A DNA stretch of 64,000 nt, taken from Escherichia coli (lineage in GTDB: Bacteria; Pseudomonadota; Gammaproteobacteria; Enterobacterales; Enterobacteriaceae). Below the pieces are notes generated by a model that ran no database searches, was not told where the DNA came from, and saw only the letters and a list, made by a program, of their open reading frames with translations. Made by a program: the position numbers and the translations under genes. Position 1 is the first letter of the stretch. Every line of letters starts with the position of its first letter. Location: assembly GCF_003334815.1 (NCBI RefSeq), contig NZ_QOWO01000003.1; one strand, 5' to 3'. Below are positions 40,707-46,146 of the stretch, piece after piece.

Positions 40707-40727
40707 TTTTCGCCTCGTGGTTCGGGT

Positions 40728-40811
40728 GTCGGATGCGACGCTGACGCGTCTTATCCGACCTACGGGGAGCGCATTTGTAGGCCGGATAAGGCGTTTACGC
40801 CGCATCCGGCA
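40728..40811. repeat. REP/BIME element inside the phn operon (phnL-phnK spacer)
   Basis: Inverted pair GTCGGATGCGACGCTGACGCGTCTTATCCGACCTAC and TGTAGGCCGGATAAGGCGTTTACGCCGCATCCGGCAC. Confidence 0.8.
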
Positions 40812-40816
40812 CCGGC

Positions 40817-41575
40817 TCAATTCTGCAAAACCGATGACACCAGCAGCTGTGTATACGGATGATGCGGGTCGTCGAGCACGCGGTCGGTTAACCCACTCTC
40901 CACCACTTGCCCCTGCTTCATCACCAGCAAACGGTCCGCCAGCAGGCGGGCGACGCCTAAATCATGGGTGACAATCACCACCGCGAGGTTCAGCTCCACC
41001 ACCAGGCCGCGCAGCAGGTCGAGCAGGCGGGCCTGCACCGACACATCCAGCCCGCCGGTCGGTTCATCCATAAACACCAGCTTCGGATGCGTCACCAGGT
41101 TGCGGGCAATCTGCAAACGCTGCTGCATACCGCCGGAAAAGGTGGTCGGCAGGTCGTCGATCCGGTTGGCGGGAATCTCCACCTCTTCCAGCCACTTCTG
41201 CGCGGTGGCACGAATATCGCCGTAATGACGTGCCCCGGTCGCCATCAGCCGCTCGCCGATATTGCCGCCTGCCGACACCTGGCGGCGCAGGCCGTCGAGT
41301 GGATGCTGATGCACCACGCCCCATTCGGTACGCAGCAGGCGACGGCGGTCGGCCTCGCTCATTGCATACAGCGAACGGTTCTCGTAGTGAATTTCCCCCT
41401 GCTGCGGCGTCAGGCGCGCGGAGATCGACTTCAGCAGCGTGGTCTTCCCGGAGCCGGATTCCCCGACAATGCCCAGCACTTCCCCCGGCCATAAATCAAA
41501 AGAGACATCGCTAAAGCCTTTGCCCGGCGCGTAAAGGTGGGTCAGGTTATTGACCGAAAGTAACGGTTGATTCAT
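40817..41575 (-). CDS. phnK: PhnK, ABC-type ATPase component of C-P lyase
   Basis: ORF track 262 aa trimmed to [11 protein letters not shown] (252 aa); Walker [10 protein letters not shown]. Confidence 0.9.
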
Positions 41576-42417
41576 TGGTTTTTTGCCTCGCTCTGTTGGC
41601 GGCAATAATCGGTATCGGAGCAGACAAACATGCGGTTTCCGGCGTCATCCAGCACCACTTCATCAAGATAGCTGTGGGTCGATCCGCAGATGGCGCATGG
41701 CTCATCCCACTGCTGAACGGTGAACGGGTGATCGTCGAAATCGAGACTTTCCACGCGGGTAAACGGCGGCACCGCATAGATGCGCTTCTCGCGCCCCGCG
41801 CCGAACAGTTGCAGGGCGGGCATCATGTCCATTTTTGGGTTATCGAATTTCGGGATCGGCGACGGGTCCATCACGTAGCGCCCATTTACCTTCACCGGAT
41901 AGGCGTAGGTGGTGGCGATATGACCGAAGCGGGCGATATCTTCATACAGTTTCACCTGCATCACGCCGTACTCTTCCAGCGCGTGCATGGTGCGGGTTTC
42001 CGTTTCGCGCGGCTCGATAAAGCGCAGCGGCTCGGGGATTGGCACCTGGAAGATAATTATCTGATCTTCGGTCAGCGGCGTTTCGGGGATGCGGTGACGC
42101 GTCTGGATAACCGTCGCATCGTCCGTACGTTCCGTGGTGTTTACCCCGGTCACGCGCTTGAAGAAGTTGCGAATCGACACGGCGTTGGTGGTGTCATCCG
42201 CGCCCTGGTCAATCACCTTCAGCACGTCGCTTTCGCCAATCACGCTGGCGGTAAGCTGAATGCCGCCGGTTCCCCAGCCGTACGGCATCGGCATCTCGCG
42301 CCCGCCAAACGGCACCTGATAACCGGGGATCGCCACCGCTTTTAAGATGGCGCGGCGGATCATGCGTTTGGTCTGCTCGTCGAGGTAGGCAAAGTTGTAG
42401 CCGCTCAGATTAGCCAT
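41572..42417 (-). CDS. phnJ: PhnJ, C-P lyase catalytic subunit (radical SAM-like 4Fe-4S)
   Basis: ORF track 325 aa trimmed to MANLSGYNFAYLDEQ (281 aa); C-terminal CxxCxxxxxC cysteines. Confidence 0.92.
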   Translation of the reverse strand: MANLSGYNFAYLDEQTKRMIRRAILKAVAIPGYQVPFGGREMPMPYGWGTGGIQLTASVIGESDVLKVIDQGADDTTNAVSIRNFFKRVTGVNTTERTDDATVIQTRHRIPETPLTEDQIIIFQVPIPEPLRFIEPRETETRTMHALEEYGVMQVKLYEDIARFGHIATTYAYPVKVNGRYVMDPSPIPKFDNPKMDMMPALQLFGAGREKRIYAVPPFTRVESLDFDDHPFTVQQWDEPCAICGSTHSYLDEVVLDDAGNRMFVCSDTDYCRQQSEAKNQ

Positions 42418-42421
42418 GGTT

Positions 42422-44058: not shown

Positions 44059-44507
44059 GCGTTGTCTCCGCGAACCATCGTAAAGAAGTCGACCCGGCTG
44101 GCGTTCACTTCGGCCTGGCGTGCGGCAATGCGTGCCATACGGTCAGCGTCCAGCGGGGCAATAAGGGTTTCTGATAAGTTTTGAAAGTGGCGAGATTGCT
44201 GCATCAGCGCGTCAATCAGCGCGCAGCGTTCGGCGTGCTGTTTATCACGCCCCTGCACCCAGCTGTAGCCGAGCGTGCCGTCAGTCAGGCGCACGGCGGC
44301 GCGGGTCAGCGTGGCGTCGCCGGCAAAAAAACGTTCGCCGGTGCCGCCCATCCGCGCCTGAATCTGTACCAGGCCAGTTTCAGCGGCGCGGATCACCTCA
44401 TAGTCGGCGGTGATGTTTAGCGCGTTCAGGCGTGCTGCCAGTTCAGCCGGTTGGCTGTGCGCCAGCACGGACATCCAGTGCTGGCGGGTCGCGGTATCTG
44501 CGTGCAT
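44055..44507 (-). CDS. phnG: PhnG, C-P lyase core subunit
   Basis: ORF track 150 aa. Confidence 0.93.
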
Positions 44508-45233
44508 TCAGTGCTCCATAGTGAATTCAATCATGTCGGCGCGCGTCAGGCTGACGGAGTACTCCGCCGGGCTGCTTTCACCGTCACGGTGGTTAAGGGT
44601 GCGCACGCACAGCAGCGGCGACATATTCGGGATTTCAAGACGCTGGCACTCTTTGGCCTGGGCGCGGCGGGCGCTGATCCGCGTCTGGCTGCGGCGCAGC
44701 GCAATTCCGGTTTGCTCGCGCAGAAAATCGTGCAGCGAGCCGCTGTCGAAGCGTTGCAGCGTCGGCCAGAGGGTGAGGTCCGCGAAGTAGTGGTCGATTA
44801 AACAGAGCGCGACGCCGTTGACACGACGCAGGGTGCGCAGGTGGATGACGTTCTCCCCCTCGGTAATCCCCAGTGCGTCAGCGACGTGGCCGGACGCGGG
44901 GCGCAATACCGAAAGCAGTTTTTCGCTGGTGGGATGGCTGCCCTGATCCAGCAGATTCTGGCTAAAACGCGCCTGGGCGTTGAGCGGGTAATCGAACGGG
45001 CGCATCAGCACCAGCACGCCGACGCCCTGACGGCGCTGTACCCAGCCTTTTTCCACCAGTTGGTCGATGGCGCGGCGCAGGGTGTGGCGATTCACCTCAA
45101 AGCGCGCTGCCAGTTGCTGCTCGGCGGGAAGATAGTCGCCGCAGCGGTAGTGTTGACGAAGCTCCTGCTCAAGTTTTGCGGCTATCTCTTGATAGCGTGT
45201 TGGGTAGCTGGTCGGATGTGTAGACAAGTGCAT
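44508..45233 (-). CDS. phnF: PhnF, GntR-family repressor of the phn operon
   Basis: ORF track 244 aa; second in-frame Met (MHLSTHPTSYP) taken as start. Confidence 0.88.
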   Translation of the reverse strand: MHLSTHPTSYPTRYQEIAAKLEQELRQHYRCGDYLPAEQQLAARFEVNRHTLRRAIDQLVEKGWVQRRQGVGVLVLMRPFDYPLNAQARFSQNLLDQGSHPTSEKLLSVLRPASGHVADALGITEGENVIHLRTLRRVNGVALCLIDHYFADLTLWPTLQRFDSGSLHDFLREQTGIALRRSQTRISARRAQAKECQRLEIPNMSPLLCVRTLNHRDGESSPAEYSVSLTRADMIEFTMEH

Positions 45234-45253
45234 AGATATCAATGCCTCGCTTA

Positions 45254-46104
45254 TCAGATAAAGTGCTTACGCAACCGTTGAGAGAGGAAATCCAGCAGGC
45301 TGACCGTGACGATGATAAGCACCATCAGGGCGCAGGTTTGTTGGAACTGGAAACCGCGAATCGCTTCCCACAGGGTGACGCCGATCCCGCCTGCGCCGAC
45401 CATGCCGACGACGGTCGCCGAGCGGACGTTGGATTCGAAGCGATAGAGGGAGTAGGAGATCAGCAGTGGCATCACCTGTGGCAGCACGCCGTAGAGGATC
45501 TCTTCGAGCTTGTTGGCACCGGTGGCGCGAATGCCTTCCACCGGGCCGGGTTCAATCGCTTCCACCGCTTCGGAAAGCAGCTTGGAGAGCACGCCGGTGG
45601 TGTGGATAAACAGCGCCAGCACGCCAGCACGCCAGCGAACGGGCCGAGGCCGACGGCGACCACGAACAGCATGGCGAAGACCATTTCGTTAATGGCGCGG
45701 CAGGCGTCCATCAGGCGGCGAACGGGCTGGTAAACCCACCACGGCACCAGGTTTTCGGCGCTCATCAGGCCAAAGGGGATGGAGAGAACCACCGCCAGCG
45801 CGGTGCCCCAGACGGCGATTTGCAGCGTGACGGCCATTTCGGTGAGGTAATCCTGCCACTGGCTGAAATCGGGCGGGAAGAAGTCGGCGGCGAACGTCGC
45901 CATGTTGCCGCCGTCTTTGATCAGCGTAAGCGGGGCCATTTCCGCGCCCTGCCACGAGACGACCAACACGGCGAGTACAACGGCCCAGCTCAGAAGCGAG
46001 AACCAGCTGCGCTTGGGTGGGGCGATGGTGATGGTTTGCATGTTTGGCTCCGGTCTGTAGGCCGGATAAGGTGCTTGCACCGCATCCGGCATCAACGCCT
46101 GCAC
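45254..46104 (-). pseudogene. phnE: PhnE, phosphonate ABC transporter permease, frameshifted at an 8-bp repeat (K-12 cryptic allele)
   Basis: ORF track splits it into 45472..46104 and 45254..45622 in different frames; three tandem GCCAGCAC-type copies at about 45614..45637. Confidence 0.9.
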
Positions 46105-46143
46105 ATTGTCGGATGCGACGCCGGGGCGTCTTATCCGACCTAC
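46056..46143. repeat. REP/BIME element in the phnE-phnD spacer
   Basis: Inverted pair TGTAGGCCGGATAAGGTGCTTGCACCGCATCCGGCA and GTCGGATGCGACGCCGGGGCGTCTTATCCGACCTAC. Confidence 0.8.
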
Positions 46144-46146
46144 GAT

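Follow-up and report, generated by a model that had tools for sequence, protein, structure and literature searches.

Paired REP elements at two junctions of the Escherichia coli phn operon: candidate barriers to mRNA decay between phnD and phnE and between phnK and phnL

Why should a compact operon, most of whose genes overlap, keep two wide gaps that are each filled by a pair of palindromic repeats? We addressed this question for the phn operon of Escherichia coli (phosphonate uptake and carbon-phosphorus [C-P] lyase) in a 64,000-nt stretch of DNA (contig NZ_QOWO01000003.1 of NCBI RefSeq assembly GCF_003334815.1; hereafter the window), in which one pair of repetitive extragenic palindromic (REP) elements lies between phnD and phnE (the D-E junction), and another between phnK and phnL (the K-L junction). 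Both are ordinary E. coli REP doublets, each combining a y-type with a z-type REP in inverted orientation. We think it reasonably likely, reasoning by analogy with REPs studied elsewhere, that both pairs would act on the phn mRNA as a barrier to 3′ exonucleases and as a partial attenuator. Selection on the hairpin is probable at D-E and doubtful at K-L.

Two REP doublets in the widest gaps of the operon

The window is a segment of a K-12-like E. coli chromosome, and its gene map was taken from an identical annotated genome together with the list of open reading frames. The phn operon, phnCDEFGHIJKLMNOP, comprises 14 genes, all on the minus strand, from phnC to phnP (Table 1). Its 13 junctions measure, in nt, +24 (C-D), +105 (D-E), +20 (E-F), 0 (F-G), -4 (G-H), -1 (H-I), -8 (I-J, the MG1655 value), -4 (J-K), +110 (K-L), -4 (L-M), -1 (M-N), -14 (N-O), and +1 (O-P); the two REP-bearing junctions are by far the widest. 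The first-pass annotation, made from the sequence alone, had placed a paired REP in each of these gaps, at 40728..40811 and 46056..46143, which agrees with our boundaries within 1 nt; its description of most other phn genes as overlapping by 1 to 4 nt is roughly right, since five junctions do so and two more overlap by 8 and 14 nt.

Read along the mRNA, the D-E junction consists of the phnD TAA, 3 nt, the z REP, a 15-nt linker, the inverted y REP, and 15 nt that include the Shine-Dalgarno (SD) sequence, before the ATG of phnE; the K-L junction consists of the phnK TGA, 5 nt, the inverted y REP, a 13-nt linker, the z REP, and 20 nt with the SD, before the ATG of phnL. Each single REP of both junctions folds at about -20 to -22 kcal/mol. 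The RNA of the complete D-E junction folds at -51.5 kcal/mol (z = -4.2) and that of the K-L junction at -60.7 kcal/mol (z = -6.8), and in both cases none of 200 shuffled sequences folded as well. Both junctions are base-for-base identical to those of MG1655.

Across the window, the REP core pattern is matched 41 times, where 6.4 matches are expected; none of 100 shuffles reached 41, and all of the matches are clustered in intergenic loci. All four REP units of the two junctions start with GTAGG(C/T)CGGATAAG and end with GCATCCG(G/A)CA, and so have the GTAG 5′ foot that, in an imperfect palindrome of ~35-40 nt, defines a REP; each single-REP fold also contains an internal loop in its stem at ATAAG/GCAT, a stem mismatch of the sort needed for binding by TnpA_REP (PMC3333891). 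The phn pairs share two inverted REPs, GTAG feet, and stem mismatches with the doublets (bacterial interspersed mosaic elements, BIMEs, or REP doublets forming hairpins, REPINs) that are mobilised by TnpA_REP, a REP-associated tyrosine transposase (RAYT) (PMC3333891, PMC3116915); the RAYT gene itself is outside the window. The K-L doublet occurs in near-identical form, linker included, at another locus: doublet and linker are ~96% identical to the BIME between norW and hypF, indicating that K-L is a copied unit. Queries with the K-L junction hit a median of 29 places per genome, with ~25-30 near-identical copies of the doublet in each. The D-E pair differs in this respect, having a median of one matching place per genome and no close full-length copy found elsewhere.

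Neither pair is a BIME-1 or a BIME-2. BIME-1 elements join z1 and y REPs by a long conserved L linker with an integration host factor (IHF) site, and BIME-2 elements join z2 and y REPs by a short S linker and occur in tandem copies (PMC3333891). BIME-1 is ruled out for both pairs by their linkers of 13 and 15 nt, which lack an IHF site; indeed, no match to the IHF consensus WATCAANNNNTTR was found within or near either junction. As for BIME-2, the short linker is present at K-L, but each junction holds one pair only, and the z REPs have GTCGGAT/ATCCGAC outer stems; those of the z2 units in the BIME-2 arrays of the window (8347, 18840-19333, and 48613-48854) are GCCTGAT/ATCAGGC. Because the pairs are neither BIME-1 nor BIME-2 by the published definitions, we refer to them as atypical BIMEs. 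We also considered intrinsic (Rho-independent) terminators and rejected them for both sites: no terminator-like site was found at 40707..40816 or 46042..46146, and the tails CCCGAACC and AGACCGGA have no U-tract.

The Rfam model naRNA4 (RF02564) matches the D-E pair at 69.1 bits, above its gathering threshold of 59.5, on the + strand, that is, antisense to phn. The K-L REPs score 36-43 bits, below the threshold, because their order is tail-to-tail whereas that of the model is head-to-head. The feature table of NC_000913.3 contains no curated REP features; the two phn loci are probably the EcoCyc REP elements numbered just below REP325.

Conservation and alleles at the two junctions

A scan with PhnJ yielded 80 operons, from Enterobacteriaceae to Alphaproteobacteria, and all 14 phn genes were mapped on each of them by tblastn. 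The D-E spacer is at least 50 nt long in 44 of 46 outgroup operons. Among the scorable spacers (those of at least 30 nt; n = 44), 43 (98%) fold at -15 kcal/mol or better, with a median of -27.8 kcal/mol and a median z of -2.9; the same cut-off is reached at 12% of C-D and 15% of J-K junctions, which served as controls, and at 35% of E-F junctions. The strongest outgroup D-E hairpins (median -25.7 kcal/mol) begin close to the phnD stop codon, at a median distance of 6 nt (15 nt or less in 86%), and none is followed by at least five T within 8 nt. The source of the hairpin differs by lineage: it is built from boxC-like units (see below) in Enterobacter, Leclercia, and Kluyvera, from REPs in Citrobacter and Cedecea, and from a unique GC hairpin in Hafnia, Pantoea, and Mangrovibacter, and it is likewise unique and non-repeat in many Pseudomonas. 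Phn operons thus conserve a non-terminator hairpin close to the phnD stop codon, and the REP pair is the form that it takes in E. coli. The position looks like a functional slot conserved across Proteobacteria.

The K-L junction has a different history. In its basal state this junction is a spacer of 9 nt with little besides the SD, as seen in Leclercia (GAGGCGAAC), Citrobacter FP75, Cedecea neteri, and Hafnia, and this entire basal spacer of Leclercia and Citrobacter corresponds to the phnL ribosome-binding region of E. coli. Most other Gammaproteobacteria have K-L spacers of 8-40 nt. Species-specific REPs have expanded the spacer to 55-160 nt in six other enterobacterial lineages, namely Enterobacter asburiae, Pluralibacter, Kluyvera, Cedecea sulfonylureivorans, isolate RIT691, and Citrobacter werkmanii. 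The K-L hairpin of E. coli is a recent, lineage-specific insertion into a spacer once 9 nt long, and it is probably tolerated more than required.

Within E. coli, both junctions are dimorphic. We surveyed 5,426 complete genomes, of which ~5,385-5,390 have the phn operon. At K-L, 4,840 genomes carry the REP pair and 545 an unrelated allele (90/10%); at D-E, 3,874 carry the REP pair and 1,503 unrelated alleles (72/28%). The alternative K-L allele has a 176-nt spacer with two inverted copies of a GC-rich palindrome, CCCCTCACCC..CCCTCTCCC..GGGAGAGGG.., that is unrelated to REPs, and the alternative D-E alleles are built from this palindrome too, as a single unit, two units, or variants of these. 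The two allele classes have nothing in common between the stop codon and the SD; at D-E, the SD stretch of phnE (46039..46051) is common to both. An empty-site allele was seen at neither junction among the ~5,385 genomes, nearly all of which are covered by the REP and alternative counts. The two replacements are also linked: in 59 evenly sampled genomes, REPs occupy both sites in 41, only D-E is replaced in 14, both are replaced in four, and K-L alone is replaced in none, so the K-L replacement is nested in the haplotype with the D-E replacement.

We tentatively call the alternative element boxC-like. It resembles BoxC, a family of imperfect palindromes numbering some 20-30 in E. coli K-12, in unit length (~50-56 bp), GC-rich palindromic form, and dispersed copies; for the existence and size of that family we rely on PMC2267715. 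One pair of the palindromes is found between hrpB and mrcB in K-12. The window has another GC-rich, boxC-like pair past the 3′ end of the operon, at 37040..37135, bounded by the phnP stop (37155) and the end of yjdP (37008), with an RNA fold of -63.8 kcal/mol (z = -2.3). In reverse complement, this pair runs nearly colinear with the 545-genome K-L allele, so both seem to be copies of a single composite dispersed element, ~125 nt long. The Rfam search returned no model for the boxC-like element, only chance-level microRNA matches.

Proposed function and its alternatives

We propose that both REP pairs are transcribed within the phnC-to-phnP mRNA, where each would fold either as two hairpins of about -20 kcal/mol or as one long hairpin of -51 to -61 kcal/mol, starting 3-6 nt past the stop codon. 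Such a hairpin would block 3′-to-5′ exonucleolytic decay, so that decay intermediates ending at it keep the upstream cistrons translatable, and it would cause a partial loss of read-through that may in part depend on Rho. The predicted outcome is stepwise expression, phnCD > phnE-K > phnL-P, with the post-phnD hairpin probably answering the usual requirement for periplasmic binding protein in excess of permease. We dropped strong occlusion of the SD downstream from this model, because neither SD is strongly sequestered: their mean unpaired probabilities, 0.45 (phnL) and 0.58 (phnE), are not decisive, and those in the boxC-like alleles are similar or lower.

The closest known cases are malE-REP-malF and hisJ-REP-hisQ, where REPs follow the binding-protein genes of ATP-binding cassette (ABC) transporter operons (Higgins 1982; Newbury 1987, as cited in PMC12306157 and PMC2267715). 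The D-E junction shares their layout, a binding-protein gene, a REP hairpin without U-tract, and a permease gene on one transcript, and may share their expected effect, with the upstream mRNA shielded from 3′ exonucleases and more binding protein made than membrane components. It differs from them in that the phn pair is only 3 nt from the stop codon and that an unrelated palindrome takes its place in 28% of E. coli genomes. A second comparison is REP325, the naRNA4 array between yjdM and yjdN (48613..48895), 2.5 kb upstream in the window, which stabilises the upstream yjdM transcript and brings about partial, Rho-dependent termination (bioRxiv 10.64898/2026.03.23.713779). REP325 has the same y + z REP family and also separates a tandem gene pair; however, it is a tandem BIME-2 array of y + z2 units, whereas the phn junctions have one pair each, with a z REP and not z2. 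Its Rho dependence was seen with the full array alone and was missing from fragments of 2-4 hairpins (bioRxiv 10.64898/2026.03.23.713779). Genome-wide, the log upstream/downstream expression ratio of tandem gene pairs separated by REPs has a median of 0.96 (controls, -0.09), with large variance (same preprint).

RNA-seq of phosphate-starved K-12 gave a single 14-gene phn transcript whose coverage decreases along its length, and the transcription units assembled in that study break at K-L in two low-expression samples, as phnGHIJK in HS15min and as phnLMNOP in M-P0h (PMC3734233). The first-pass annotation had suggested that the REPs set differential mRNA stability between the transporter genes (phnCDE) and the C-P lyase genes. 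The stability part of this idea is favoured by the established role of intercistronic REPs, by stable hairpins without U-tract just past the stop codons, and by the hairpin in 43 of 44 outgroup D-E spacers; the boundary it named is wrong. The D-E pair lies inside the transporter set, after the binding-protein gene phnD and before the permease gene phnE, and the K-L pair lies inside the lyase set, between phnK, which closes the series of PhnGHIJK complex genes, and phnL. Since neither pair separates transporter from lyase genes, the predicted split is phnCD / phnE-K / phnL-P, and the second of these corrected boundaries coincides with the end of the genes for the PhnGHIJK complex.

Several points weigh against a barrier and attenuator at both sites. 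Its function in phn is drawn from analogy with tested REPs (malE-malF, hisJ-hisQ, and REP325), together with anatomy and conservation. The K-L hairpin is missing in the close relatives with a 9-nt spacer (Leclercia, Citrobacter FP75, Cedecea neteri, and Hafnia) and so cannot be essential for the pathway. The O-P gap (operons L011 and L015) and the E-F gap (L013) are likewise filled by REPs in other species, as expected of opportunistic insertion at any gap. Since the doublet has ~25-30 near-identical copies per genome and only uniquely mapped reads were used, the breaks in the assembled transcripts at K-L may be artefacts of mapping. Finally, if ribosomes stalled at a hairpin so near the stop codon, PhnD would go down, contrary to the benefit expected.

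One alternative is that the repeats are neutral selfish DNA, with REP doublets and boxC-like elements as non-autonomous mobile palindromes that settled in the few intercistronic gaps where they neither disrupt a gene nor disturb a junction coupled by overlap, any effect on phn being incidental and not selected. The independent expansion of the basal K-L spacer by species-specific REPs, and the REPs at O-P and E-F, agree with this, as do the near-exact match of the K-L doublet to the norW-hypF BIME down to its linker, the colinearity of the boxC-like K-L allele with the element downstream of phnP in opposite orientation, and the occupation of the same sites by two unrelated repeat families. Neutrality does not readily account for a D-E hairpin in 98% of scorable outgroup spacers, non-repeat hairpins included, when the control junctions C-D and J-K do not fold, nor for the lack of an empty allele at either junction in ~5385 E. 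coli genomes. Taking both sites together, we regard neutrality as rather doubtful; for K-L by itself we lean slightly towards it, and for D-E by itself we find it improbable.

Another alternative is a stop-proximal translational brake, in which a ribosome that cannot fully reach the stop codon stalls, the mRNA is cleaved, and the ribosome is rescued by transfer-messenger RNA (tmRNA), so that the output of PhnD and PhnK is lower. When a REP lies less than 16 nt from a stop codon, ribosomes reportedly stall and the upstream gene is translated less (Liang 2015, as restated in PMC12306157). Both phn pairs are within this distance, at 3 nt from the TAA of phnD and 5-6 nt from the TGA of phnK, as are the stop-proximal, translation-regulating REPs of the nrdA-nrdB type (Liang, Rudd and Deutscher 2015), and 86% of the outgroup post-phnD hairpins start within 15 nt of the stop. 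However, binding proteins are normally in excess over permeases, which makes a brake on PhnD go against expectation, and a brake can coexist with the stabiliser and attenuator without having to replace it. We consider the brake unlikely as the explanation. A DNA-level or trans role, with the pairs as sites for DNA gyrase, IHF, or HU or as the source of a nucleoid-organising RNA like naRNA4, is very improbable: BIMEs are reported to bind gyrase and IHF (PMC2267715; PMC3333891) and naRNA4 has its above-gathering match to the D-E pair on the + strand, but this match reflects a model composed of a y REP and a z REP, there is no IHF consensus in or near either junction, the linkers are short, unlike the long L linker of BIME-1, no promoter-like site was found for + strand transcription of the D-E pair, and REP325/naRNA4 itself had no measurable effect on nucleoid compaction, REP-REP contacts not being seen (bioRxiv 10.64898/2026.03.23.713779).

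The exonuclease barrier with partial attenuation is the reading we retain for both pairs. A broader possibility, which we put forward tentatively, is that selection keeps a stop-proximal hairpin after phnD, and in E. coli perhaps after phnK, whatever the element that forms it, with REPs, boxC-like units, and plain hairpins as interchangeable modules. If so, the linked REP/boxC-like dimorphism would be a natural polymorphism that tunes expression, and with it phosphonate uptake and the stoichiometry of C-P lyase. The allele series itself (REP pair, one or two boxC-like units, and 9-nt spacer) would offer ready material for studying the tuning of operon stoichiometry by palindromic repeats. REPs were first recognised between cistrons, following binding-protein genes, and the two loci are identical to those of MG1655, the most thoroughly annotated genome, so the kind of element is already known. 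We found no papers that discuss REPs at these two phn loci in the searchable literature, and the text of the REP catalogue does not include them; the comparative picture (post-phnD slot, post-phnK insertion, and linked dimorphism), which we did not find described there either, is a modest addition.

Coordinates, annotation, and other elements of the window

Table 1. The phn genes and the parts of the two REP-bearing junctions, in transcript order (positions are those of the window).
Feature	Position	Strand	Remark
phnC	47188..47976	minus	
phnD	46147..47163	minus	
phnD stop codon TAA	46147..46149	minus	REP pair starts 3 nt downstream on mRNA
z-core REP GTAGGTCGGATAAGACGCCCCGGCGTCGCATCCGACA (D-E)	46107..46143	minus	GTAG foot on transcript strand; first hairpin after phnD; alone -20.0 kcal/mol
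15-nt head-to-head linker (D-E)	46092..46106	minus	without IHF consensus
y-type REP GTAGGCCGGATAAGGTGCTTGCACCGCATCCGGCA (D-E)	46057..46091	plus	GTAG foot on + strand, an inverted REP (iREP) on mRNA; alone -19.8 kcal/mol
phnE ribosome-binding region	46039..46051	minus	SD GGAG 46048..46051, 6-nt spacer, ATG 46039..46041
phnE	45254..46041	minus	frameshifted
phnF	44508..45233	minus	
phnG	44055..44507	minus	
phnH	43474..44058	minus	
phnI	up to 43474	minus	
phnJ	41572..42417	minus	
phnK	40817..41575	minus	
phnK stop codon TGA	40817..40819	minus	REP pair 5-6 nt downstream; extended stem from first nt after stop
y-type REP GTAGGCCGGATAAGGCGTTTACGCCGCATCCGGCA (K-L)	40777..40811	plus	GTAG foot on + strand, an iREP on mRNA; alone -22.3 kcal/mol
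13-nt tail-to-tail (S-type) linker, GGGGAGCGCATTT on + strand (K-L)	40764..40776	minus	
z-core REP GTAGGTCGGATAAGACGCGTCAGCGTCGCATCCGACA (K-L)	40727..40763	minus	GTAG foot on transcript strand; alone -21.3 kcal/mol
phnL ribosome-binding region	40704..40716	minus	SD GAGG 40713..40716, ATG 40704..40706
phnL	40026..40706	minus	
phnM	38893..40029	minus	
phnN	38336..38893	minus	
phnO	37915..38349	minus	
phnP	37155..37913	minus	

The D-E gap is annotated as 54 nt in MG1655 and measures 105 nt here. A difference in REP copy number from K-12 was rejected as the cause, the DNA being identical; the discrepancy arises because EcoCyc starts phnE1 51 nt further upstream, at an ATG within the REP pair. The curated start of the MG1655 phnE1 pseudogene corresponds to 46090..46092 of the window (position 11282 of the MG1655 locus, L001), at the edge of the y REP. 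The NCBI Prokaryotic Genome Annotation Pipeline (PGAP) starts phnE at the ATG 46039..46041, which has the GGAG SD, and the annotation of strains whose phnE is intact uses this start as well (780 nt). The upstream phnE1 start is probably an annotation artefact, and we flag its position within the REP pair as an annotation issue. The phnE of the window is frameshifted as in K-12, and most other genomes align 8 bp shorter there. This length fits the known 8-bp duplication by which phnE is inactivated in K-12.

A 7.2-kb stretch of the window is nearly identical to strain D9 and many others, and five positions differ from D9 across the 19.2 kb compared. At position 42424 in phnI, the window has A on the + strand where MG1655 and D9 have G, which turns Gln351 (CAG) into TAG. 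By this private nonsense single-nucleotide polymorphism (SNP), PhnI loses its last four residues, and the 8-nt phnI/phnJ overlap becomes a 4-nt gap; a 71-mer containing the SNP has an exact match in none of 5,385 complete E. coli genomes.

The gap that holds REP325 (48553..48909) has three units and 357 nt in the window, whereas that of MG1655 is 657 nt long (13743..14399 of L001), with about three more units of ~100 nt, so the array varies in copy number. Two further loci of the window match naRNA4 in Rfam: a BIME-2 tandem array at 18840..19333, in which five z2 REPs alternate with four y-variant REPs (outer stem GTCGGAT), and a single y/z2 pair at 8312..8388. Outside E. coli, the phnE-phnF spacers of Pseudomonas syringae and P. 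folii (operons L054 and L056) contain very long perfect palindromes that fold at -68 and -85 kcal/mol and are probably Pseudomonas REP/REPIN elements. The other Rfam matches above gathering in the window are the small RNAs (sRNAs) sraL at 937..1077 (minus strand) and STnc630 at 54558..54723 (plus strand), and SECIS_2 at 21799..21853 (minus strand).

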